A DNA stretch of 64,000 nt. It comes from Escherichia phage vB_EcoM_E9. Every line of letters begins with the position of its first letter. The stretch's first letter is position 1. This document shows positions 1 through 18,422 of the stretch, piece by piece. The position numbers were made by a program, and so were the translations under genes. The notes beneath the pieces were generated by a model, which saw only the letters and a program-made list of their open reading frames with translations, was not told where the DNA came from and did no database searches. Location of the stretch: sequence record PP886229, one strand, 5' to 3'.

Positions 1-1050
1 GCCCCCTTAACATTCTCTTAACAATTTCTTAACAATCCCTACATAGTTATGCTTGTTAGAGACTTGTTAGCCCCTTGTTAAATCTCTGTTAAGACCACGT
101 AAAAGCCTTGTAAGAGTCTTTAGCATAGCCTTTAAAGCCTCTGTAAAGCCCTATAAAGAGGTGTCTACATAGTTGGGGTGTAATTACTAGGAAGAGACTT
201 AAAAGAGCTTACAAAGAGCTATAGAGAACTTTTAAGAGGTATGTTTAGAGAATCACTAAGAAAGAGAGGGAACTATAGACCAAGAGATAGTGACCATGTT
301 AATAGCTTGTTAAAAAGATTAAACACTTGTTAGGAATTTGTTAATTATCTTAACAAAATAACTCTTAAAAATTAACTTGTTAGCTCTTATTAGTCATCTG
401 TTAAGACTCTGTAAAACCTATGTATCAACTGTTAAGAAACTGTTACACCCTTGTTAGCTCTGTTAAGAATCTGTTAAGACCTCTGAAGAGATGTTAAGAG
501 GTTGTAAGAACTGTTAAGAGATTGTTAAGGATATTTTAAAATTTTGCAAAGGGGATGTTACAGGGATGTTAAGGGCTACCAAGCAGATATACATCTTCTA
601 CAGATATTTTTGAGTTCCTTCAAAGACCCTAAAAAATGACTTGATAACCCTATTTTATAAAAATTTTAAAATTCTGAATAATTACCTAGACAGTCTTTTA
701 AAAATACAGGCATAAACAGGCTTATAAGATACCTTGTTAGTACCGTGTTAGACCTTGTGAGATAAGGTCTGAAAAGATATTCCTGTTAAGTTTGTTAAAA
801 CAGTCTATATAGAGGCTTAGTAATACCTAGTGAACACCTATAGAGGGTAACATAGCTAACCTAGAGATTAAGAGGTGTATAGGGGCTTCTAAGAGGGTGT
901 AGAGGTGTGGTTAAGGTGATTGTATAGGTTGCTAAGAAGGCTTGTTAGAGGGCTATTTAGAAGGTTTATACAGAGGGCTATTAAGACCACTAGATAGTTA
1001 CTAAGATACTATATAGTACTATATAACTATATATAGAGAGTAAGCTTAAG
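1..1050. repeat. Non-coding region saturated with short direct repeats, core TGTTA(A/G) (CTTGTTAG, CTGTTAAG, ATGTTAAG variants), more than 30 copies
   Basis: No ORF in the track before 1055; motif recurs at e.g. 60-100, 300-350, 400-530, 730-800, 1050-1065. Confidence 0.7.
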
Positions 1051-1074
1051 AAGGATGTTAAGAAGGGTAGATAT

Positions 1075-1083
1075 TTATCCACA
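1075..1083 (+). promoter_or_regulatory. Single DnaA-box-like 9-mer TTATCCACA next to an AT-rich stretch (1110-1160)
   Basis: Exact consensus string; a single 9-mer could occur by chance. Confidence 0.2.
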
Positions 1084-1193
1084 TATGATGGTGACCCAGA
1101 GGTTGGGACAACCGATGAAATTTTATAAAAATTATAAATTTCGTAAAATTTACTCAATAAAAAGCCCCCAATTAAGGAGGCTCTTAAGATATT

Positions 1194-1787
1194 TTAAATC
1201 AGTGTTTCCAGAACTGTCTTCAGTGATGACTTGGTTGTCTGATAAAAATGAGTAAATCCATTGTTGTTATCGAATACCTGCATCATGATATCATCTCCCT
1301 TGATTGGGTACACTCGAATATCATAGTGAAACCCATTAAAGACAGCAGAACCATTACAGAATGAACTAAAGTCATCCACTGAGATATACTCTTCATGTCC
1401 TGTGATTTTTATACAGATACCTTTACTCGGTCTCTTAGGATTGATATCTTCCATCACAGACATACTCTGTCCACCAAGAGATACCATAGTGACCACTTTA
1501 CGGTTCTTCTGTCTAAAGTACATCTTAACTTTCTGTAAAGTGTCTTCATAGAACGGATAAGACTTCTCTACAAAGATTCCTTCAAGTGGCTCTTTACCAT
1601 TTTGAACCTCTCTGTAACCCCGTACTGCAAAGATAATTTGTTCTAACCTATTAAGGCTTTCTTCGTAGAGTGCTCCACGAATATCACTCCAATCAAGGAC
1701 TAGGTAGTTACCTTCAACATCTTTTAAGTTATCTTTTTCCATAGCTATCACACCATTATCGTAAAACTTGGTAAGCTGGAACTGCAA
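1194..1787 (-). CDS. hypothetical protein (ORFan block)
   Basis: 197 aa ORF, part of a co-oriented tightly packed minus-strand block. Confidence 0.5.
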   Translation of the reverse strand: MQFQLTKFYDNGVIAMEKDNLKDVEGNYLVLDWSDIRGALYEESLNRLEQIIFAVRGYREVQNGKEPLEGIFVEKSYPFYEDTLQKVKMYFRQKNRKVVTMVSLGGQSMSVMEDINPKRPSKGICIKITGHEEYISVDDFSSFCNGSAVFNGFHYDIRVYPIKGDDIMMQVFDNNNGFTHFYQTTKSSLKTVLETLI

Positions 1788-9073: not shown

Positions 9074-9445
9074 ATGAAAAACAGAACAAACAAAGGCCAG
9101 TTTAAAAAAGGCCAGTCTGGAAACCCATCTGGAAGACCAAAAGGCTCTCGTAACAAAAGCTCACTTGTAAAAGCTCAACTGACCATTGATAATTCTGCTG
9201 AGTTTGCTGCAAAGTTGTTTGAAGCAATTGTTACAAGGGACGCTGCTAAGCTTGCAGAGTTCGGTTTAACGACTGACGATGTAAACCTGAAGTCGATGAT
9301 GGAAGCTGGTAAAACTATCATGACTCACTCAGCAGGTGAGATGAAAGCCATTGCAGCAGACACTAAGAAGACTCCTGATAACGGTGGTCAGTCTCAGACA
9401 GATAACAAACCAACGTTCTCTGCTGTAGCGACTCTCAAAAAATAA
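9074..9445 (+). CDS. hypothetical protein with N-terminal Gly/Lys-rich motif (GQFKKGQSGNPSGRPKG)
   Basis: 123 aa ORF. Confidence 0.5.
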   Translation: MKNRTNKGQFKKGQSGNPSGRPKGSRNKSSLVKAQLTIDNSAEFAAKLFEAIVTRDAAKLAEFGLTTDDVNLKSMMEAGKTIMTHSAGEMKAIAADTKKTPDNGGQSQTDNKPTFSAVATLKK

Positions 9446-9526: not shown

Positions 9527-10942
9527 ATGAGCGAATTATTTAAACATGCGCACCTTCATGTAGGTCGAACTGAAAATGGTGCTGTAAACCATACTTCATC
9601 AATGTCTGCTCTTGTGGACTTTTACAAAGCTGCTGGTTCCAGCCGTAGTAATGTAGAAATCTTACCAGACTTGTTCTACAAAGCTTTGCGTGAGGATGTT
9701 GATGTTGCAGTTCGTATTTTACTGCATATGCGAGATGTACGAGAAGGTATGGGTGAGCGTAAAGCTTTCCGAACTGTTTTACTTCAAGCGATTGAAGATA
9801 AAGTTTTAGAGCCTACACAGGTTCTTCGCATTATGGATAAGATTGCAGAACTTGGTCGTTTTGATGACTTCAAAATCTTCGTAGGTACTCGTTTTGAGAC
9901 AGATGCCTTCAAACATTTAGAAGCAGCATTACTAGACCCTGCAACATCAGGTTTAGCGGCTAAGTGGTTACCACGAGTAAAACCACGCCACAAACAGTTT
10001 GTAAAACGTTTCTGTAAGTTTGCAAACTTAAGTGAGAAGGAGTATCGCACACTGTTATCTGCACTGTCTGATACGGTTGAGCAAAAAATCTCTGCTAATG
10101 AGTTTGGTAAGATTGACTACAGCAAGATTCCTTCACTCGCTGCTGCACGTTACCAAAAGCTCTTTAACCGTAAAGATGGGGAACGTTACAAAGCTTACAT
10201 TGAGTCCTTATCAAAAGGTGAGGCTAAGATTAACGCTGGTGCTGTTTACCCATACGATGTGATTAAATCTATCAAGTATGGTAATGCAGATGTTGCTAAT
10301 GAGCAGTGGAAAGCACTACCAAACTGGATGGCAGAAGGTGAGAACATCTTGTGTATGACTGATGTTTCAAGCTCAATGTCTTGGGTGAATATTGGTTCAA
10401 TCACTGCCCTTGATATTGGTGTATCACTTGCTTTGTATGTAGCAGAACGCAACACTGGTTGCTTTAAGAATGAGTTAATGGTTTACTCAACAAACCCTCA
10501 CTTCATCGAACTGAGTGGTGATTTACGAAACCGTCATCGTCAGGTAATGCGTCATGTTGAATATGGTTCAACTAACTTACAAGCAGCTTTTGACCGTATT
10601 CTTGAGGTAGGTAAGCGAAACAACTTGACTCAGAAAGATATGCCAAGTAAGCTTATTATCTTCTCCGATATGGAGTTCAATCAGGTTGATGGAGCTAACG
10701 GTCGTACAAACTTTGAAGCAATTCAGAGTAAGTACAAAAAAGCTGGATACGAAATGCCACAACTAGTATTCTGGTACTTAGCAAACCGTAATGGTACTTG
10801 CGAAGTATCTGTTAAGGATAATGGTGTAGCGATGGTATCAGGGTTCTCTCCAGCCACTTTAAAAGCTCTGCTTGGTGGTGAGAAGTTTGACCCAATCAGC
10901 GTAATGCTCAAAGCAGTAATGATTGACCGTTACATCTGGTAA
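9527..10942 (+). CDS. von Willebrand factor A (vWA) domain protein with large N-terminal domain (TROVE/DUF2828-like suspected)
   Basis: 471 aa; MIDAS-like DxSxS motif (CMTDVSSSMSW) in the C-terminal half. Confidence 0.55.
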   Translation: MSELFKHAHLHVGRTENGAVNHTSSMSALVDFYKAAGSSRSNVEILPDLFYKALREDVDVAVRILLHMRDVREGMGERKAFRTVLLQAIEDKVLEPTQVLRIMDKIAELGRFDDFKIFVGTRFETDAFKHLEAALLDPATSGLAAKWLPRVKPRHKQFVKRFCKFANLSEKEYRTLLSALSDTVEQKISANEFGKIDYSKIPSLAAARYQKLFNRKDGERYKAYIESLSKGEAKINAGAVYPYDVIKSIKYGNADVANEQWKALPNWMAEGENILCMTDVSSSMSWVNIGSITALDIGVSLALYVAERNTGCFKNELMVYSTNPHFIELSGDLRNRHRQVMRHVEYGSTNLQAAFDRILEVGKRNNLTQKDMPSKLIIFSDMEFNQVDGANGRTNFEAIQSKYKKAGYEMPQLVFWYLANRNGTCEVSVKDNGVAMVSGFSPATLKALLGGEKFDPISVMLKAVMIDRYIW

Positions 10943-11108: not shown

Positions 11109-11185
11109 CTCTGTTTAGCTCAGCTTGGTAGAGCGTTCCGTTTGGGGCGGTAAGGCCGGAGGTTCAAGTCCTCCAACAGAGACCA
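11109..11185 (+). tRNA. tRNA-Pro (anticodon TGG)
   Basis: 7-bp acceptor CTCTGTT/AACAGAG, D-arm GCTC..GAGC, T-arm GGAGG-TTCAAGT-CCTCC, 3' CCA. Confidence 0.7.
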
Positions 11186-11192
11186 AATTAAT

Positions 11193-11270
11193 GTTCCAGT
11201 AGACAAAATGGTAAAGTCACCACTCTTTCAAAGTGGATATTTGAGGGTTCAAATCCCTTCTGGAACGCCA
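11193..11270 (+). tRNA. tRNA-Glu (anticodon TTC)
   Basis: Acceptor GTTCCAG/CTGGAAC, anticodon stem CCACT/AGTGG, T-loop TTCAAAT, CCA. Confidence 0.7.
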
Positions 11271-11277
11271 GTTTTGA

Positions 11278-11350
11278 CAGAAGACCAATTGCAGCAAACT
11301 TAATCTTATTCATCTGACACGAAATCGGACAAAGAAGAGATTTGGTCTGG
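11278..11350 (+). ncRNA. Stem-bounded tRNA-sized element, copy a (CAGAAG-AGACCAA ... TTGGTCT-GG)
   Basis: 7-bp terminal stem 11282-11288/11342-11348; conserved CAGAAG leader and CAGCAA box; no T-loop consensus. Confidence 0.4.
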
Positions 11351-11361
11351 TCATTAAGAAT

Positions 11362-11438
11362 TGCGGGTATAGAGAAAGGGCGTCTCACATGTCTCATTAG
11401 CATGGTATCGGCAGGTTCGACTCCTGCACCCGCCTCCA
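11362..11438 (+). tRNA. tRNA-Met-like (anticodon CAT), mismatched 1:72 pair
   Basis: Anticodon stem CATGT/GCATG, T-arm GCAGG-TTCGACT-CCTGC, CCA. Confidence 0.55.
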
Positions 11439-11444
11439 AATTTA

Positions 11445-11508
11445 CAGAAGACCGTTTACAGCAATATTTATTAAATTTTTAGCGGAAAAATTGAAAGATA
11501 CGGTCTGG
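11445..11508 (+). ncRNA. Stem-bounded element, copy b (CAGAAG-AGACCGT ... ACGGTCT-GG)
   Basis: 7-bp terminal stem with compensatory changes relative to copies a and c. Confidence 0.4.
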
Positions 11509-11521
11509 TAATACTAAACAT

Positions 11522-11598
11522 GGTTAGGAAGCACATAAGGTATGTGCGGTCGCCTGTTAAGCGAATGGCACAGGGTTCGAATCCCTGACTAACCGCCA
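11522..11598 (+). tRNA. tRNA-Asn (anticodon GTT)
   Basis: D-arm GCAC..GTGC, T-arm CAGGG-TTCGAAT-CCCTG, CCA. Confidence 0.65.
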
Positions 11599-11607
11599 AA
11601 TTTAAAT

Positions 11608-11695
11608 GTGTCGTTATCCCGTAGATGGTAGCGGTGGGGACTGTAAATCCCTTGTCATTGAGACTCGGTAGGTTCGACTCCTACACGGCACACCA
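11608..11695 (+). tRNA. tRNA-Tyr (anticodon GTA), long variable arm
   Basis: Acceptor GTGTCGT/ACGGCAC, anticodon stem GGGGA/TCCCT, T-arm GTAGG-TTCGACT-CCTAC, 88 nt. Confidence 0.7.
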
Positions 11696-11701
11696 AATAA
11701 A

Positions 11702-11779
11702 GGTTATGTAGTTTAATCTGGTTAAAATACTCCCCTGTCACGGGAGATGATGTGAGTTCAAGTCTCATCGTAACCGCCA
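11702..11779 (+). tRNA. tRNA-Asp (anticodon GTC)
   Basis: Acceptor GGTTATG/CGTAACC, anticodon stem CTCCC/GGGAG, CCA. Confidence 0.7.
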
Positions 11780-11866
11780 AATTATAATAAGTATTTCAAG
11801 ATGATGTTTTGAGAGGGCTATTTAGCCCCTCCCTTAAAGAGTTCTTACGAGTATTCTTTAAAGGAG

Positions 11867-11940
11867 CAGAAGACCAAATTCAGCAAGTTACTTAAAATTT
11901 CAAGCCAATTTAATTTTGAAAAATTTAAAACTTGGTCTGG
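11867..11940 (+). ncRNA. Stem-bounded element, copy c (CAGAAG-AGACCAA ... TTGGTCT-GG)
   Basis: 7-bp terminal stem 11871-11877/11932-11938. Confidence 0.4.
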
Positions 11941-11953
11941 CTCAAAAATTTTA

Positions 11954-12085
11954 CAGAAGACCGTTTACAGCAAAACTTAAACAATCTATTTCTCCGGTAA
12001 AGAAAAGGCGAAGGTTCGATTCCTTCACTCGGCAGATGTCGAGTTGGTGTAATGGTAGCACTTAAGATGATAAACAACGGTCTGG
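11954..12085 (+). ncRNA. Stem-bounded element, copy d, enclosing tRNA halves in permuted order
   Basis: 8-bp terminal stem AGACCGTT/AACGGTCT (11958-11965/12076-12083); contains a T-arm and a D-arm in reversed order. Confidence 0.4.
11989..12061 (+). tRNA. Candidate circularly permuted tRNA (anticodon GGT, Thr-like): 3' half 11989-12034 precedes 5' half 12038-12061
   Basis: 3' half has anticodon arm TTTCT-CCGGTAA-AGAAA, T-arm GAAGG-TTCGATT-CCTTC, acceptor ACTCGGC; 5' half has acceptor GTCGAGT (7 bp with one G-U) and D-arm GTGT-AATGGTA-GCAC. Confidence 0.35.
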
Positions 12086-12086
12086 T

Positions 12087-12230
12087 AATTATCTTTGTAG
12101 ATAAGTTATTAAGCTTACCTGTGAGTATGCGACCACAAAGGGTGAAAGGGCAAATTCTAGATTTAAACCCAACAAGGCACATCGCTACAGACCTTAAGCA
12201 AGTCTGGGTAGCTTATCTACAAAGATAATT
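12087..12230. repeat. 19-bp perfect inverted repeat AATTATCTTTGTAGATAAG (12087-12105 / 12212-12230) flanking ~106 bp
   Basis: Arms are exact reverse complements. Confidence 0.6.
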
Positions 12231-12234
12231 TAAT

Positions 12235-12310
12235 GGAAGTGTAGCAGAATGGTGATGCGGCAGACTTTTAATCTGACAGGCGATGGGTTCGAATCCCTCC
12301 ACTTCTACCA
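12235..12310 (+). tRNA. tRNA-Lys (anticodon TTT)
   Basis: Acceptor GGAAGTG/CACTTCT, loop CTTTTAA, T-loop TTCGAAT, CCA. Confidence 0.6.
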
Positions 12311-12314
12311 ATAT

Positions 12315-12391
12315 GGTTCAGTCGCAGATAAGGTAATGCAGGGGTCTCATAAGCCCTATGAATGTGGGTTCGATTCCCATCTGAACCTCCA
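12315..12391 (+). tRNA. tRNA-Met or tRNA-Ile2 (anticodon CAT)
   Basis: Perfect acceptor GGTTCAG/CTGAACC, loop CTCATAA, CCA. Confidence 0.7.
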
Positions 12392-12392
12392 A

Positions 12393-12468
12393 GCTGGTAT
12401 AGTTAAGAAGGTTATAACACTCCCCTGATAAGGGAACATCGGTGGTTCGATTCCACCTACCAGTACCA
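12393..12468 (+). tRNA. tRNA-Ile (anticodon GAT)
   Basis: T-arm GGTGG-TTCGATT-CCACC, loop CTGATAA, CCA. Confidence 0.65.
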
Positions 12469-12483
12469 ATTTCAATAAAGTTG

Positions 12484-12512
12484 TTGACATTGAGATGTGA
12501 CTACTTTATAGT
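12484..12512 (+). promoter_or_regulatory. Sigma70-like promoter TTGACA-N17-TATAGT inside the tRNA array
   Basis: Exact -35 at 12484-12489 and -10 TATAGT at 12507-12512 with 17-nt spacer. Confidence 0.55.
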
Positions 12513-12805
12513 AACTGAAAATAATTCAGCATATGTATAATTCAAACACCAATACATGAGCGTTAGACGTAACACAATGTGGGGAAATTTGTTGTACATA
12601 TTCTGAATAGTTTTCGTTGCGTAGCGTCTATTTTGCAAATTTAAAATAAATGCAAACGACAATGTTTTTCTGGCAGTAGCTTGATAGGCTAAACACCAGT
12701 GAGGTCTTCCAATCCCTCATCAAAGAATTTGGCGTACTAGCCCACGGTATGATTAATAAGGTGGGCATCTTTAAGGGCTTTCTAAGAGAGTCTTTAAAGA
12801 TTAAT

Positions 12806-12882
12806 GCACCCTTAGTTCAATTGGATAGAGCAACGGTCTTCTAAATCGTTAGTTACAGGTTCGAATCCTGTAGGGTGTGCCA
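12806..12882 (+). tRNA. tRNA-Arg (anticodon TCT)
   Basis: D-arm AGTTCAATTGGATAGAGC, loop CTTCTAA, T-loop TTCGAAT, CCA. Confidence 0.7.
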
Positions 12883-13024
12883 AATAGTTAGCAGATTGCT
12901 TAGACGACCTTATCGGGTCTCCGTGTAAGGAGGTGGTCTGTATCTCATGTTTTCCAGAACATGTAAATAATCTGAGAAGGGGCTTTACAGTGTTGCGAAA
13001 ATACGGTAAGCTTCGAATTACAGT

Positions 13025-13107
13025 ATGGGACGATGTTAAGACTCTAAGGCATGAGCAACGGCCTCCAAAACCGTTTCAAAGGGGTTCAACTCCTCCGTCC
13101 CATGCCA
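13025..13107 (+). tRNA. Atypical tRNA-like sequence, anticodon unassigned
   Basis: Acceptor ATGGGAC/GTCCCAT plus T-loop-like GGGGTTCAACTCC and CCA, but no clean D-arm or 7-nt anticodon loop. Confidence 0.3.
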
Positions 13108-13120
13108 AAGTCTTATTAGG

Positions 13121-13208
13121 GGTAGGTAGCGGCTAATGGCAGCCAAACAGTCTTGAAAACTGTTGCCACTGTAGAGATACGGTGAGGGTTCGACTCCTTT
13201 ACTTACCG
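13121..13208 (+). tRNA. tRNA-Ser (anticodon TGA), long variable arm
   Basis: Anticodon stem ACAGT/ACTGT, loop CTTGAAA, long variable arm, T-loop TTCGACT; no encoded CCA. Confidence 0.6.
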
Positions 13209-13364
13209 CCTAATAAGATTTACACCGTCCATGCTTGCTCGCATTTTCGGTTTATCCCTCGTGTATTGTCGTACACTGATAAAGCACCTAGCAGGTGTCA
13301 CGGAGAAGAGATAATATCAAGCTCTCCAAAGGTTCTAGTCACCGGATTAAACAAGACTATGCAA

Positions 13365-13384
13365 AGACCTATTTAGGTCTTTTT
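13365..13384 (+). terminator. Rho-independent terminator AAGACCT-ATTT-AGGTCTT followed by TTTTT
   Basis: 7-bp stem plus T-run, inside the tRNA array. Confidence 0.6.
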
Positions 13385-13463
13385 AGAGGGCTTCTAAGGT
13401 TATTACAGCTTGTTGTGGAACCTTGTTGCTTAGGTTCTTAGAAGTTCTCTAAAAAGATTTAAT

Positions 13464-13541
13464 GGGAGATTGACGGTAATTGGTAAACCTACCATCCTTA
13501 GAAGTTGGTGTTTGAGGGTTCGAATCCCTTGTCTCCTACCA
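13464..13541 (+). tRNA. tRNA with apparent anticodon TAG (Leu-type) but short variable arm; identity uncertain
   Basis: Acceptor GGGAGAT/GTCTCCT, T-arm GAGGG-TTCGAAT-CCCTT, CCA; 78 nt. Confidence 0.5.
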
Positions 13542-13548
13542 AATTAAT

Positions 13549-13624
13549 GCAGGTGTAGCAAAATGGTTATGCGGCTGACTCTTAATCAGTAAGACGATGG
13601 GTTCAATTCCCTCCACCTGTACCA
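13549..13624 (+). tRNA. tRNA-Lys (anticodon CTT)
   Basis: Anticodon stem GCTGA/TCAGT, loop CTCTTAA, CCA. Confidence 0.65.
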
Positions 13625-13630
13625 AACAAT

Positions 13631-13706
13631 GGGGTCATAGTTTATATGGTTAAAATTCTAGTTTTGCAAACTTGGGAACTGAGTTCAATTCTCAGTGACT
13701 CCACCA
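13631..13706 (+). tRNA. tRNA-Ala (anticodon TGC)
   Basis: Acceptor GGGGTCA/TGACTCC with the G3:U70 wobble typical of tRNA-Ala; CCA. Confidence 0.75.
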
Positions 13707-13712
13707 ATTAGT

Positions 13713-13787
13713 GCATCCATAGTTTAAACGGGAAAATTACAGTCTTCCAAACTGAGGTTGAGGGTTCGATTCCCTCTGGATGCTCCA
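13713..13787 (+). tRNA. tRNA-Gly (anticodon TCC)
   Basis: Perfect acceptor GCATCCA/TGGATGC, loop CTTCCAA, CCA. Confidence 0.7.
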
Positions 13788-13794
13788 AATTAAT

Positions 13795-13870
13795 GCTCCT
13801 ATCGTATAATTGGCTATTACGGTTGCCTTGTAAGCAACTTATCAGGGTTCGAATCCTTGTGGGAGCACCA
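13795..13870 (+). tRNA. tRNA-Thr (anticodon TGT)
   Basis: Anticodon stem GTTGC/GCAAC, loop CTTGTAA, T-loop TTCGAAT, CCA. Confidence 0.7.
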
Positions 13871-13874
13871 ATTT

Positions 13875-13961
13875 AGAGGTCAAGTGAAAGACCGCTTTGA
13901 GTCAACTGAAGACCGTAACAAATTCCACGGAGTTGAGTTAGCGGCACAACTTCAGACCTCT
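13875..13961 (+). ncRNA. Stem-bounded ~87 nt non-tRNA element (AGAGGTC ... GACCTCT) containing GAAGACC motifs
   Basis: 7-bp terminal inverted repeat 13875-13881/13955-13961; no T-loop consensus. Confidence 0.3.
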
Positions 13962-13966
13962 TTAAT

Positions 13967-14041
13967 ACTCGCTTAGTTTATATGGTAAAACACCACCCTT
14001 ACAAGATGAAGAAAAAGGTTCAAGTCCTTTAGTGAGTACCA
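13967..14041 (+). tRNA. tRNA-Val (anticodon TAC), weak anticodon stem
   Basis: Acceptor ACTCGCT/AGTGAGT, D-arm GTTT..AAAC, T-arm AAAGG-TTCAAGT-CCTTT, CCA. Confidence 0.5.
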
Positions 14042-14042
14042 T

Positions 14043-14120
14043 GTTCCAGTATCCCAATTGGTAGAGGATGCAAGCTCAAACCTTGCACTAGTGACGGTTC
14101 GAATCCGTCTTGGAACACCA
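14043..14120 (+). tRNA. tRNA with anticodon CAA (Leu-type) but class I architecture; identity uncertain
   Basis: Perfect anticodon stem GCAAG/CTTGC, loop CTCAAAC, T-arm GACGG-TTCGAAT-CCGTC, CCA. Confidence 0.55.
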
Positions 14121-14125
14121 ATTTT

Positions 14126-14201
14126 GCAGGATTAGTTCAAATGGATAGAGCAACAGTCTACGAAGCTGTTAATAGGGGTTCGAATCCCTTATCCTGCACC
14201 A
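14126..14201 (+). tRNA. tRNA-Arg (anticodon ACG)
   Basis: Perfect acceptor GCAGGAT/ATCCTGC, loop CTACGAA, CCA. Confidence 0.7.
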
Positions 14202-14219
14202 ATTAAGTAAGAGGGATTT

Positions 14220-14462
14220 ATGCAAACATTAATAGTCGTTGAACATGAAAATTCCAATAGCATTGAGTTTGTAAGGGTTCCCACTATAGATACCCACATT
14301 TTCTTGAAAGTCGGCTGGGGATGCGACCCAATAAGAGTAGAAAAATTTATTGGTCATTGCTTTGGTGGAAGACAACTTAAAAGTGTCAATTTTGAGACAA
14401 TGCTACCAGAAAACTCAGAAACAAATAATAATGCTTACCTCCTTACGAGGATTAGACAATGA
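14220..14462 (+). CDS. hypothetical protein embedded in the tRNA array
   Basis: 80 aa ORF in a tRNA-free gap, stop overlaps the next ORF start. Confidence 0.4.
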   Translation: MQTLIVVEHENSNSIEFVRVPTIDTHIFLKVGWGCDPIRVEKFIGHCFGGRQLKSVNFETMLPENSETNNNAYLLTRIRQ

Positions 14463-15016
14463 GATACTTAAAATATGTTTCATGGATTTTCTTAGCTTTG
14501 TTAGAGCCATTTGCAGCAATCTTAGCAGTTATCTTAGCACCTTTTGTAGTTCCATTTTACAGTGAGAAGAAAGGACACTTACCTTTCGGATTTAGATGGA
14601 TGGAAACTTATGACAACCCGATTGATGGTGATGAAGGTCATGTCAAACGATGGGCTAAGATTAGAAAGATTGGTAAGCTTGGTGTCTATTTACAGAGAGT
14701 TGGATGGCTCTGGAGAAACAAAGCTTATAACTTCTCTTACCATGTGTTAGGAAGAGATGTAAAAGATGTTACTAAGTGGAAAGGTAATATCAACGTAAGC
14801 TCTGACCCTGAAGATAATCAGACAGGTTATCTCCTAATGTGGAACAGTAATGCTTGGGGATTATTCGCTTTTATCCCATCAATTAAAGTCTTTGGTAAAC
14901 AATTCTACTGGAGAATTTATGTTGGATGGAAACTTAAAAGTGTTGTCCCAGAAGAAAGAGCATTCTCAAGGGAAAGAGTTATGTTGGCATTCTTTATTCA
15001 TCCACTAAGAAAGTAA
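14459..15016 (+). CDS. putative membrane protein embedded in the tRNA array
   Basis: 185 aa; N-terminal hydrophobic helix (WIFLALLEPFAAILAVILAPFVVPF). Confidence 0.5.
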   Translation: MRYLKYVSWIFLALLEPFAAILAVILAPFVVPFYSEKKGHLPFGFRWMETYDNPIDGDEGHVKRWAKIRKIGKLGVYLQRVGWLWRNKAYNFSYHVLGRDVKDVTKWKGNINVSSDPEDNQTGYLLMWNSNAWGLFAFIPSIKVFGKQFYWRIYVGWKLKSVVPEERAFSRERVMLAFFIHPLRK

Positions 15017-15024
15017 AGATTTAA

Positions 15025-15100
15025 AGGGGATTAGTTTACAAGGTTAAAACCTCGGTCTTTGAAATCGAAGAAGTTGGTTCAATTCCAACATCCCCCGCCA
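15025..15100 (+). tRNA. tRNA-Gln (anticodon TTG)
   Basis: Anticodon stem TCGGT/ATCGA, loop CTTTGAA, T-arm GTTGG-TTCAATT-CCAAC, mismatched 1:72 pair. Confidence 0.6.
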
Positions 15101-15102
15101 AT

Positions 15103-15181
15103 GCTCCATTACTCCAATTGGCAGAGAGGCCAGACTTAAAATCTGTGTTATGTATCGGTTCGAATCCGATATGGAGTACCA
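15103..15181 (+). tRNA. tRNA with anticodon TAA (Leu-type) but no long variable arm; identity uncertain
   Basis: Acceptor GCTCCAT/ATGGAGT, loop CTTAAAA, T-arm ATCGG-TTCGAAT-CCGAT, CCA. Confidence 0.5.
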
Positions 15182-15186
15182 AATTT

Positions 15187-15262
15187 AGCGGTATAGCATA
15201 ACTGGCAATGCAGCAGTCTCTGAAGCTGTCTTATTAAGGTTCAAATCCTTATGCCGCTGCCA
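15187..15262 (+). tRNA. tRNA-Gln (anticodon CTG)
   Basis: Anticodon stem GCAGT/GCTGT, loop CTCTGAA, T-arm TAAGG-TTCAAAT-CCTTA, CCA. Confidence 0.6.
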
Positions 15263-15293
15263 CTTCTAAGGGTTCTTACGAGAGTCCTTAAAT

Positions 15294-15369
15294 GTGGCCT
15301 TATCATAAATGGTAATGACCCATGCTGTGAACATGGTCTATACGGGTTCAAATCCCGTAGGTCACCCCA
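15294..15369 (+). tRNA. tRNA-His (anticodon GTG)
   Basis: Perfect anticodon stem CCATG/CATGG, loop CTGTGAA, CCA. Confidence 0.65.
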
Positions 15370-15375
15370 ATTTAT

Positions 15376-15451
15376 AGTCCAAGTAGCTTATATGGTTAAA
15401 GCGCGTGTCTGAAAAACATGAGAAGAGGGTTCAAATCCCACTGGACTACCA
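15376..15451 (+). tRNA. tRNA-Phe (anticodon GAA)
   Basis: Loop CTGAAAA, T-loop TTCAAAT, acceptor 3' strand CTGGACT, CCA; overlaps the GTG start proposed by the ORF track. Confidence 0.55.
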
Positions 15452-15467
15452 ATTTCAAAGGTGCTTA

Positions 15468-16202
15468 ATGAAAGAGATGACAGAACAAGGTAAGGAGATT
15501 TTTAATCTCTTAAAAACCGGTAGAGGGTTTTCTAACCCCCTTATTACTGGTGCAGCAGTTCTCGGTGGAACCGTAGCTGCCTCTACATCACTTGTAAGCT
15601 CTATTAGCTCTGTAACAGACCCTACAATAAAGGATAAGCTTGTTGCTGCTGGGCTTACAACAGTTCTGCTTAATAGCTTTACAACGAGTCTGACAAGCAC
15701 TACATCAACTACTAAGACACTGACAGATTACGGTCAAAAGTCCATTGATGAGTTTTCATCACGTATGCAGGTAGCAAAAGGATATTCCAATGTTATGGGT
15801 GCAGCAGGAGAGCAAGTCGGTTGTACGCCATTTAGTGGTATTATGGGTGTTGCTACAGAATATGGTCAAAAAGCTATTGACACGATTAACAACACGTTAG
15901 ACAGTGTTAATGATGTATTAAGTGACTTACAAGATGCTATTGATAAAGGTCTTGATACTGTTTCTGATTTAGCTAACCAAGCTGTTAGCAAGATTAATGA
16001 AGGTATCTCGAAGATTACAGCTTATGCAGATGAAGTTGTGCAGATGATTGAAGAAGAAGCTGCCCTTATTGCAGAGTACCTTAAAACGAATATCAATGGG
16101 TTCTTAGCAGGTATCTTACCAGACTGGTTTGACGATGCTTGTAAAACTGGTGTGATTGACACTATTGCAACACAAGAAATGAAGAACGCATTACAGAAAT
16201 AA
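15468..16202 (+). CDS. hypothetical Ser/Thr-rich protein with N-terminal hydrophobic segment
   Basis: ORF track 15405..16202 starts at a GTG inside tRNA-Phe; in-frame ATG at 15468 (MKEMTEQ) clears the tRNA. Confidence 0.5.
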   Translation: MKEMTEQGKEIFNLLKTGRGFSNPLITGAAVLGGTVAASTSLVSSISSVTDPTIKDKLVAAGLTTVLLNSFTTSLTSTTSTTKTLTDYGQKSIDEFSSRMQVAKGYSNVMGAAGEQVGCTPFSGIMGVATEYGQKAIDTINNTLDSVNDVLSDLQDAIDKGLDTVSDLANQAVSKINEGISKITAYADEVVQMIEEEAALIAEYLKTNINGFLAGILPDWFDDACKTGVIDTIATQEMKNALQK

Positions 16203-16203
16203 T

Positions 16204-16296
16204 GGAAGATTAACCCTAAAAGGTAAGGGAGCAGTTTGCTAAACTGCCAGTAGCTGAGAAATCGGTGTACCAGTTCAAGTCTGGTATCTTCCTCCA
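16204..16296 (+). tRNA. tRNA-Ser (anticodon GCT), long variable arm
   Basis: Perfect anticodon stem GCAGT/ACTGC, loop TTGCTAA, T-arm ACCAG-TTCAAGT-CTGGT, CCA; 93 nt. Confidence 0.65.
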
Positions 16297-16300
16297 ATTT

Positions 16301-16376
16301 GAATCCGTGACAGAAATGGCTATGTGCCTGTCTGCAAAACAGGTTTATAAGGGTTCGAGTCCCTTCGGATTCTCCA
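16301..16376 (+). tRNA. tRNA-Cys (anticodon GCA)
   Basis: Perfect acceptor GAATCCG/CGGATTC, anticodon stem CCTGT/ACAGG, loop CTGCAAA, CCA. Confidence 0.7.
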
Positions 16377-16598: not shown

Positions 16599-16799
16599 AT
16601 GAGCGAGACCGTTTATAAAGAACTTTATGAAGCTAACAAAAAGCTAGAATTTATGCAGAACACTATCATGGCGATTGCAGACAGATTGTCTGTAGCAACA
16701 GGTATTGATATCAAAGAAGCCTCTATGGATGCACTTCTTGATGCTGTTGATGCAAAGTTCGAAGTTAAGAAAGAAGAGACTGCTACAGACTCTGAATAA
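16599..16799 (+). CDS. hypothetical small protein immediately upstream of terminase
   Basis: 66 aa ORF preceded by GGAG. Confidence 0.45.
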   Translation: MSETVYKELYEANKKLEFMQNTIMAIADRLSVATGIDIKEASMDALLDAVDAKFEVKKEETATDSE

Positions 16800-16820
16800 T
16801 TCTATTTGCGGAGGTGCTTA

Positions 16821-18422
16821 ATGGACTTAAATGCTGTTAAGCAGAAGCGAGTGGAAGATGTTAGGAAAGTCCTAGCTGGAGAGTTGGGGCTTTCTGATGA
16901 AGTAAAAGAAATTATCAAATCATTCGGTAAAGACCCCTCTAAATTCCTTCCAACTCAAATTCTGACTTTATTAAGATATACACCAGACCAAGTTAGACTT
17001 ATCTTCAAATTGATGACTGATAAGAACTATGTAGCCCCTCAGCCGGGTTCTCAAGAGGTCTTTTTAAATACTAATGCTGACTTGGTTTTATATGGTGGTG
17101 CTGCTGGTGCTGGTAAAACTGCTGCATTGTTAATGGACTCTTTAAGGTTTATTGAAGACCCTAACTATAATGCTGTATATTTCCGTCGAAATACAACACA
17201 GTTACAAGGTGGTTTATGGCCTGCTGCAAAGAAACTATTTGGTAAGTTTGGTGGGGTTCCTCACGAGCAGAAGATGACTATCACGTTCCCTTCTGGGGCA
17301 ACTATTAAGTTCACCTACCTAGAACTTGAAAAGCACGCTGAAGGTCATCAGGGTATTGAATACTCAGCTATCTACTTTGACGAAGGTACACACTTCTCTG
17401 CTTCACAGATTTCATACCTACAGACCCGTCTACGTTCTGGCGCTGAAGGTGACTCATACATGAAGATTTCTATGAACCCAGATAGAGACCACTTCATTTA
17501 TGATTGGGTAGAACCCTTCTTAGATGAAGAAGGTTACCCAGACCCTGAGAAGTGCGGTCGTATTCGTTGGTATGTTATGAATGATGGTGTGATGGTTTCT
17601 GATTGGGAGAGAGACAAGATTCTTGAAATGTTCCCTCTTGAGATTCCTCAGACATACACCTTCATCTCTGGTACGATTGATGATAACCCAATTCTTGACT
17701 TCTTAGAACCTAAATATCGTGGTAAGTTGGAAAACAACACACCTGTAAACGTTGCAAGACTTCGTTTCGGTAACTGGAAGGCTCGTGCAGAAGGTTCAAA
17801 CTATTGGCAAAGACAGTGGTGTGAGATTGTTGATTCACTCCCAGAAGATGTGTTTGATGTCAGAGCATGGGACTTAGCAGCGACTTTACCATCTGAAATT
17901 AACCCTAACCCAGACTGGACAGCGGGTGTTAAGATGGGTAAATCTAAAAAAGACGGTTGCTATTATATCATTGATGTAGTAAGATTTAGAGATAGACCCT
18001 CTGGAGTCGAAACACAAATTAATTTGACTGCTGAAAGTGACGGTAAGCGAACTGGTATTTTTATCCCTCAAGACCCAGGCGCTGCTGGTAAATCCTATGC
18101 AACATCCCTCATCAGGAAACTTGCCGAGAAAGGTTATCGCGCAAGAGCTAAACCAACAAATAAAGATAAAGTTACCCGCTTTGCGGGATTTTCTGCTGCT
18201 TCTGAAGCTGGACTTGTAAAAGTCTTGAGAGGTAGTTGGAACGAAGCTTACTTTCAAGAACTTGAAGGTTTTTGTGGTGATGGCAAAACTAAAGATGACC
18301 AAGTGGATGCTACCAGTGATGCTTTCAACAGTCTTAATGAAGTTAAATTATTCAAGCCACCATCAATGGGTGCTCACACAGACTTAGTGAGAGGAAACCC
18401 ATATGAGGGGCTTAGACGTTGA
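16821..18422 (+). CDS. terminase large subunit
   Basis: Walker A-like LYGGAAGAGKTAALL; ~530 aa; ORF track starts at TTG 16806, ATG 16821 follows a GGAGG RBS. Confidence 0.85.
   Translation: MDLNAVKQKRVEDVRKVLAGELGLSDEVKEIIKSFGKDPSKFLPTQILTLLRYTPDQVRLIFKLMTDKNYVAPQPGSQEVFLNTNADLVLYGGAAGAGKTAALLMDSLRFIEDPNYNAVYFRRNTTQLQGGLWPAAKKLFGKFGGVPHEQKMTITFPSGATIKFTYLELEKHAEGHQGIEYSAIYFDEGTHFSASQISYLQTRLRSGAEGDSYMKISMNPDRDHFIYDWVEPFLDEEGYPDPEKCGRIRWYVMNDGVMVSDWERDKILEMFPLEIPQTYTFISGTIDDNPILDFLEPKYRGKLENNTPVNVARLRFGNWKARAEGSNYWQRQWCEIVDSLPEDVFDVRAWDLAATLPSEINPNPDWTAGVKMGKSKKDGCYYIIDVVRFRDRPSGVETQINLTAESDGKRTGIFIPQDPGAAGKSYATSLIRKLAEKGYRARAKPTNKDKVTRFAGFSAASEAGLVKVLRGSWNEAYFQELEGFCGDGKTKDDQVDATSDAFNSLNEVKLFKPPSMGAHTDLVRGNPYEGLRR

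Follow-up and report, generated by a model that had tools for sequence, protein, structure and literature searches.

What is a kilobase of gene-free DNA, crowded with short copies of TGTTA(A/G), doing at the edge of the Escherichia phage vB_EcoM_E9 sequence? The stretch of DNA analysed here, which we call the window, comprises 64,000 nucleotides of record PP886229. A sequence-only reading had taken its first kilobase for a protein-binding array that might be a replication origin, a packaging or genome-end region, or a platform for a phage regulator.

The position of the array in the genome is the firmest part of the answer. Positions 1-1200 match 254 Felixounavirus or Felix O1-type phage records, mostly at 80-95% identity, and the first base of the window is the first base of several of the matching Felixounavirus records. 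In phage D4 the first 580 bp recur as the final 580 bp of the record, the annotation of Pr103Blw places a short direct terminal repeat (DTR) at 1-581 and 87841-88421, and a 613-bp version of the DTR is present in SeKF_63. The start (/GCCCCCTTAACAT, the slash marking the cut) and the end (TGTTAAGGGCTACC/AAGCAG) of the repeat are identical in these three two-ended records. The DTR itself is already known for the genus: that of UAB_Phi87 is 608 bp by Bal31 digestion and run-off sequencing (PMC4837284), and PhageTerm has given lengths of 581 bp (PMC8303462) and 613 bp (PMC6454146). In the original description of the Felix O1 genome, short terminal repeats were inferred, the large subunit was the sole terminase subunit found, and the TGTTAR array is not mentioned (PMC3185647). 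The start of the window is almost certainly the physical left end of a Felixounavirus genome and 1-580 the DTR, an assignment that for vB_EcoM_E9 rests on homology, the right end of this genome lying beyond the window. Of the options in the sequence-only reading, it is the genome-end region that is borne out (PMC4837284, PMC8303462), although the DTR as such was not recognized there. A Felix O1-type terminal region, at 93.5% identity, also occurs at 135884-137085 of GU169904.1 (Staphylococcus phage SA1, 147 kb), which suggests that this record is a chimeric or contaminated assembly.

Transcription at either end of the genome runs toward that end, and the concatemer junction, which consists of this DNA plus about 460 bp from the opposite genome end, is a gap of about 1.6 kb with convergent operons on its two sides. 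Such a gene-free gap is present in the four genera Felixounavirus, Suspvirus, Mooglevirus and Kolesnikvirus. As the sequence-only reading had said of roughly the first kilobase, there is no plausible gene in it (no ORF of at least 40 aa inside 1-989). The leftward operon does have its 3' end next to the region, with its terminator at 1165-1179 on the minus strand. Small ORFs at 993-1157 (minus strand) and 1055-1255 (plus strand), which some relatives have annotated as hypothetical proteins (D4 CDS 1033-1170 is an example), lie downstream of or across this terminator and are probably spurious. The features of the left end are listed below, a box being one TGTTA(A/G) hexamer and the scores being those of the ArcA matrix described later.

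1..580, plus strand: left copy of the DTR, by homology to D4, Pr103Blw and SeKF_63, with left end /GCCCCCTTAACAT and right boundary ...TGTTAAGGGCTACC/AAGCAG.
7..34, minus strand: three TGTTAA boxes in exact 11-bp steps, the outermost reading TGTTAAGGGGGC/ on that strand; kept in both Felixounavirus and Mooglevirus; the two strongest ArcA-type scores (19.1 and 22.6 bits).
54..92, plus strand: four boxes in exact 11-bp steps, TGTTAG, TGTTAG, TGTTAA and TGTTAA (ArcA matrix 11.7, 10.5 and 17.9 bits).
129..260, plus strand: second, degenerate repeat family of period 11, with three copies of CTNTAAAG at 130-158 and AAGAGCTTA-type units at 192-260.
297..404, plus strand: six forward boxes (297, 308, 328, 339, 378 and 399) and the inverted box 350-355 (ArcA matrix 17.7 and 17.8 bits).
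430..528, plus strand: densest block, seven exact boxes (430, 452, 461, 472, 492, 512 and 523), all toward the right DTR boundary, with the variants TGTTAC at 441 and TGTAAG at 503.
541..593, plus strand: right-boundary module, consisting of ATTTTGCAAAGG (541-552), boxes at 556 and 567, the cut after C580 and AAGCAGATATACA (581-593).
581..1164, no strand: gene-free unique spacer up to the operon terminator (gene-free to about 1190), conservation 0.8-0.99, with CAGATAT twice (584 and 601), an AT-rich tract at about 640-720 and forward boxes at 735, 746, 784, 793, 943 and 1056.
820..1050, within the spacer: TAAGA/TAGAGG repeats of 12-bp period.
1075..1083, plus strand: DnaA-box-like 9-mer TTATCCACA, probably not functional.
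1165..1179, minus strand: intrinsic terminator of the leftward operon, closing the gene-free region.
1194..1787, minus strand: first gene of the leftward operon.

The hexamer TGTTA(A/G) occurs 24 times on the plus strand and 4 times on the minus strand of 1-1100, and 71 and 51 times, respectively, in the other 62.9 kb, where its density is about 1 per kb. Within 1-1060 the 23 forward boxes observed compare with 1.56 +/- 1.25 expected from 2000 dinucleotide-preserving shuffles, the maximum of which was 10. The enrichment over local composition and over the rest of the window that underlay the sequence-only reading is therefore real. Its count of more than 30 copies does not hold for the exact motif and is reached only when in-phase copies with one mismatch (such as TGTAAG, TGTAAA, TGTTAC, TGTGAG and TATTAG) are included; an iterated position matrix returned n(C/T)TGTTA(A/G)(G)(A) with 30 instances. 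The single orientation that it described applies to the 24 forward boxes and fails for the four inverted ones, of which three stand at the extreme left (7-12, 18-23 and 29-34) and one at 350-355. The boxes are also regularly placed. Seventeen of the 22 successive start-to-start distances are 11, 20-22, 31 or 44 bp, nine of them being exactly 11 bp and five 20-22 bp, and the phase coherence of the boxes is maximal at a period of 10-10.5 bp. The autocorrelation at lag 11 is 0.40 in the region against a window background of 0.264 +/- 0.017, and Tandem Repeats Finder reports seven separate period-11 arrays.

Purifying selection acts on the boxes and on little around them. In an alignment of 16 sequences from three genera, scored as identity to the window, box positions are 0.960 conserved against 0.854 elsewhere in the region, and none of 1059 shifted masks scored as high. 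Constraint by position is confined to T-G-T-T-A-R (0.93-0.98), with the positions on either side at background (0.81-0.86), the G and A of TGTTAAGA among them. Between genera, the non-coding region is conserved at least as well as the adjacent genes. The sequence-only reading had made its proposal depend on the presence of the array in relatives, and it is retained in all four Ounavirinae genera, including the Erwinia phages, whose spacer DNA is unalignable. In these phages the sole alignable stretch is 467-593, which overlaps the right half of the block at 430-528, and in the homologous gap of Kolesnikvirus nine TGTTAA boxes run rightward, with a leftward array of related boxes that is larger than the triple at 7-34. 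Because the boxes are helically phased, because selection is confined to the hexamer and because the array is kept in four genera, we predict that it is a selected protein-binding array, which we regard as very probable; the sequence-only reading, which had proposed such an array, is probably right on this indirect support. The Erwinia phage SunLIRen carries in addition another phased family, TTCTAA(A/G), with 11 copies, many of them 10-12 bp apart (L010 1755-2053), in the part of the gap that precedes the terminal repeat, on the unique side belonging to the right end.

It is scarcely credible that the repeats are only a satellite made by slippage, or merely curved DNA, with no sequence-specific ligand. 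Exact 11-bp tandem repeats with TGTTAA are indeed found in many unrelated viral contigs, but the spacers of this array vary while the hexamers stay, and it persists in genera that can no longer be aligned. The contigs came from a scan for four phased TGTTAR boxes, which yielded 15 loci of Ounavirinae type together with about 100 unrelated contigs, the latter mostly exact 11-bp tandem repeats of 4-13 copies, with no proteins shared with the phage; a scan with CAAGCAGATATACA gave mostly chance matches and recovered six Felix-like loci. The phased scan does not discriminate between a ligand of host origin and one encoded by the phage. In unrelated viral contigs the exact tandem 11-mer TGTTAAGAACT occurs in 4 to 11 copies at L243 8614-8729 and also in L146, L156, L183, L186, L188, L204 and L252. 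Considered as an RNA element, the region offered nothing credible, the best and sole Rfam match (E = 0.25) falling on the terminator.

The replication origin listed in the sequence-only reading would combine iteron-like repeats with an AT-rich unwinding tract and a DnaA box. As in iteron origins, clustered direct repeats do adjoin an AT-rich tract, which is present at about 640-720 as described, and the 9-mer at 1075-1083 is a perfect DnaA box. That box, however, is at chance level, since 3.95 matches to TTATNCACA would be expected in the window and three are present, and it is not conserved, several relatives having TTGTTCACA or a deletion there. Nor do the repeats resemble iterons, having a 6-bp core on an 11-bp period against the 17-22 bp of iterons, and they differ from iteron arrays also in copy number and in their location in a terminal repeat, where they point at its boundaries. 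There is no adjacent initiator gene, the neighbouring genes being without known function or Rep-like domains, and GC skew merely tracks gene orientation. An origin at this site is very unlikely, and this part of the sequence-only reading is not upheld.

The outward-facing orientation of the boxes, which the sequence-only reading did not note, relates the array to the two ends of the DTR. The left triple (7-34) faces the left end, and nearly all of the remaining boxes (about 20) face the right cut site, so that boxes point outward at both. The DTR boundaries are themselves imperfect inverted repeats, TGCTA/GCCCCCTTAACAT on the left and, in reverse complement, TGCTT/GGTAGCCCTTAACAT on the right. 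A repeat finder paired 5-26 with 509-530 at 91% complementarity and 4-23 with 556-575 at 80%. The symmetry is imperfect, the box nearest to the cut lying 6 nt away on the left and 8 nt away on the right (last box 567-572). GGG directly follows only 2 of the 28 boxes, both of them boundary-proximal and both outward-pointing. The right-boundary module ATTTTGCAAAGG ... AAGCAGATATACA is conserved in Felixounavirus, Mooglevirus, Suspvirus and Kolesnikvirus (Erwinia phages), and the records of several Erwinia phages start and end at positions homologous to the Felixounavirus boundaries, none of the Kolesnikvirus records examined having both repeat copies. Two further repeats lie outside the cuts. 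The CAGATAT pair, 17 bp apart (584-607), stands just outside the right DTR boundary with its first copy within the AAGCAGATATACA block conserved across genera. In D4, two copies of AAAGTTACGTAAA, 22 bp apart (L002 4365-4420), abut the left cut site from outside, and this element is duplicated in Pr103Blw and Moogle too.

We propose a hypothetical model for how such an array might contribute to the formation of genome ends. Each box would be a half-site of a protein that recognizes direct repeats at a distance of one turn of the helix; this protein would bind head to tail, spread on one face of the DNA and coat most of the DTR. The two cut sites would be inverted copies of one composite signal, TGCTW/G ... 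GCCC ... TTAACAT, and the nucleoprotein coat would mark and shape the concatemer junction where terminase must cut. Since the inverted arrangement of boundaries and boxes fits the general T7-type scheme, we suggest that terminase, one enzyme acting at two inverted sites, would nick opposite strands at the two boundaries and that the DTR would then be duplicated by strand-displacement synthesis, as in T7-type packaging. That a nucleoprotein platform on the DTR organizes end formation, with the phosphorylated host regulator ArcA (ArcA-P) or a phage protein of the same specificity as its ligand, seems to us an even chance, and the same balance applies to a role of the boxes in the cutting.

The array belongs with the repeat arrays found at the junctions of DTR phages. 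The concatemer junction of T7 likewise has a short exact DTR, no genes, and 7-bp boxes of one orientation in and beside the repeat: the heptamer CCTAAAG is found inside and beside the 160-bp terminal repeat, with 11 copies in the first 340 bp and 5 at the right end. The two arrays differ in box sequence (CCTAAAG in T7, TGTTAR here) and in period (13 bp in T7, 11 bp here), and the T7 copies lie mostly outside the repeat, whereas those described here lie mostly inside it and flip orientation near the left end. The T7 array is an analogue and not a homologue. Packaging sites built from short repeats include the P1 pac hexamers, pacL and pacR of SPP1 and the R sites of lambda cosB, in which the boxes flank the terminase cut at helical-turn spacing, often with the help of a host DNA-bending protein. 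Those phages package by the headful or cohesive-end route with a known small terminase, whereas the DTR described here has a cut site at each of its ends, 580 bp from one another, and the phage lacks a known small subunit.

Which protein might read the boxes? A site for ArcA-P is composed of 10-bp direct-repeat elements (ATGTTAAAAA), the most conserved part of which is TGTTA. The centres of the elements are 11 bp apart, additional elements follow at 11 or 22 bp, and a chromosomal site has 2-5 elements in all (PMC3798270, PMC4173790). We built a matrix of the 18-bp ArcA box from the 115 published E. coli boxes readable in Table S3 (PMC3798270, PMC4173790); the real boxes rescored at 9.6-21.6 bits, the minimum for real sites is thus 9-10 bits, and the authors' own genome-scan cutoff was 15 bits. 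With this matrix, 17 boxes in 1-1100 reach 9 bits or more and 6 reach 15 bits or more, the maximum being 22.6, whereas the two strands of the other 62.9 kb have 3 boxes in all that reach 15 bits. In the DTR (1-580), 13 boxes score 10 bits or higher and 6 score 15 bits or higher, where local shuffles gave 0.62 +/- 0.80 and 0.04 +/- 0.21, respectively. At the D4 junction, 14 of the 17 matches of at least 10 bits are inside the DTR, and in each genus the gap has 6-10 boxes of at least 15 bits and the flanking genes have none. The variants in the leftward array of the Erwinia phages (TGTAAA, TGTTGC, CGTTAA and TGTTAT) are the same as those in real ArcA sites, and the footprint of selection on the hexamer alone is the high-information part of the ArcA element.

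In sequence, the region thus has what marks an ArcA site: two or more direct repeats with a TGTTA core, spacing of 11 or 22 bp, and the matrix score. The resemblance extends to E. coli ArcA-P operators such as icdA, where the core is usually followed by A and scores of 9.6-21.6 bits compare with 10-22.6 here; this match, too, was absent from the sequence-only reading. The operators have 2-5 repeats over promoters, whereas these candidate sites comprise about 28 repeats with no promoter or gene, and their spacers are richer in G+C than those of typical ArcA sites. The first T of TGTTA is also kept far more strictly here than in E. coli ArcA sites. Promoter prediction gave nine consensus-like sites against 4.6 +/- 2.1 expected; most of these sites arise because TTGTTA/TTAACA resemble the -35 hexamer, and no gene lies downstream of them. 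With neither a gene nor a convincing promoter in the region, there is no regulated promoter at the array, and the role of ArcA, if it binds, would be architectural rather than that of a repressor.

The phage family encodes the anaerobic ribonucleotide reductase NrdD/NrdG (D4 right arm, L144 2141-5544) in addition to the aerobic NrdAB and is therefore equipped for growth without oxygen. The family also encodes NAD salvage genes for nicotinamide phosphoribosyltransferase and ribose-phosphate pyrophosphokinase. ArcA is phosphorylated in the absence of oxygen and is mostly unphosphorylated in aerated culture. Felix O1-type phages grow well in aerated laboratory culture, which makes an essential packaging role for ArcA-P doubtful. 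On the matrix match, ArcA-P stands as the leading candidate for the ligand, at a probability that we would place somewhat short of even. We tentatively suggest that host ArcA-P may coat the terminal repeat of Felix O1-type phages, serving either as an architectural factor at the genome ends or as a titration target.

Binding of ArcA-P without any role in packaging is a further possibility. The array would then bind ArcA-P at low oxygen as a sensor or decoy, either titrating it (about 25 sites per junction, multiplied by the replicating genomes) or making replication or end processing conditional on redox state. The same matrix evidence, the NrdD/NrdG reductase and an array far larger than the 2-5 repeats of chromosomal sites would all accord with this, but the confinement of the boxes to the DTR and their aim at both cut sites would be needless in a pure decoy, and we consider it improbable.

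A phage protein of the same specificity is the alternative to ArcA-P as the ligand, and we regard it as a serious one, if itself short of probable. In its strictest form, in which the boxes are read only by a phage protein, such as an unrecognized small terminase subunit, and the resemblance to ArcA sites is a coincidence, this explanation is rather unlikely. It draws on the lack of a known small terminase in the Felix O1 family (PMC3185647, PMC4837284), and nothing recognizable as this subunit was found anywhere in the DNA scanned. Candidate small ORFs exist, among them an acidic one of 66 aa without assigned function (phrog_4397, 16599-16799), which immediately precedes the large terminase gene (16806-18422, with TTG as the listed start codon). 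A heptamer array of its own is present in T7, and short-repeat packaging sites are familiar from P1, SPP1 and lambda. The T7 ends contain one ArcA-type box of at least 10 bits and none of at least 15 bits, and because the CCTAAAG array is so unlike ArcA sites, the terminal arrays of DTR phages in general may, by analogy, be read by phage proteins. Against coincidence, a shared core, orientation and 11-bp spacing are unlikely to arise by chance (a few percent by a rough estimate), and the arrays of the Erwinia phages use exactly the variants that ArcA tolerates. No OmpR/PhoB-type winged-helix domain was among the Pfam matches listed for 98 ORFs (66 from the window outside the structural gene block at 16.8-40.5 kb and 32 from the D4 right arm), a weak negative, Pfam being blind to novel folds.

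The rightward late block begins with a 123-aa DUF5681 protein (9074-9442), without assigned function and considered in the small terminase search, and a 471-aa protein (9527-10942) that PHROGs classes as "RNA-binding protein" and Pfam as DUF2828/DUF7788. These two genes adjoin a cluster of 26 tRNA genes on the plus strand (11109-16376), which are interleaved with small ORFs without assigned function and lie just upstream of the large terminase gene. For Bas63, a Ro60-like protein encoded ahead of the tRNAs is described in the PhageMaP preprint (bioRxiv 10.1101/2024.10.10.617714).

In the literature that we searched, no paper was found on the TGTTAAG array or linking ArcA, including arcA mutants, to these phages. 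Against that literature, four things are new: the array of boxes, the way it faces outward at both ends, the inverted signals at the boundaries and the resemblance to ArcA sites. Felix O1-type phages are widely used for typing, biocontrol and therapy of Salmonella and E. coli, and the analysis supplies exact boundary signals and a concrete hypothesis for an end-recognition platform. Were a phage protein the ligand, it should be possible to use the array to isolate the DNA-recognition component that is missing from the known terminase. If the ligand is ArcA-P, this would represent a new kind of host-factor dependence in a virulent phage, would extend the known use of ArcA by mobile elements and would mean that these phages behave differently in the anaerobic gut and in aerated laboratory culture. 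Were ArcA-P indeed to coat the terminal repeat, a strictly lytic family would possess by far the largest known array of ArcA sites, kept across four genera, and the processing of its genome ends would be coupled to the anaerobic conditions of the gut.
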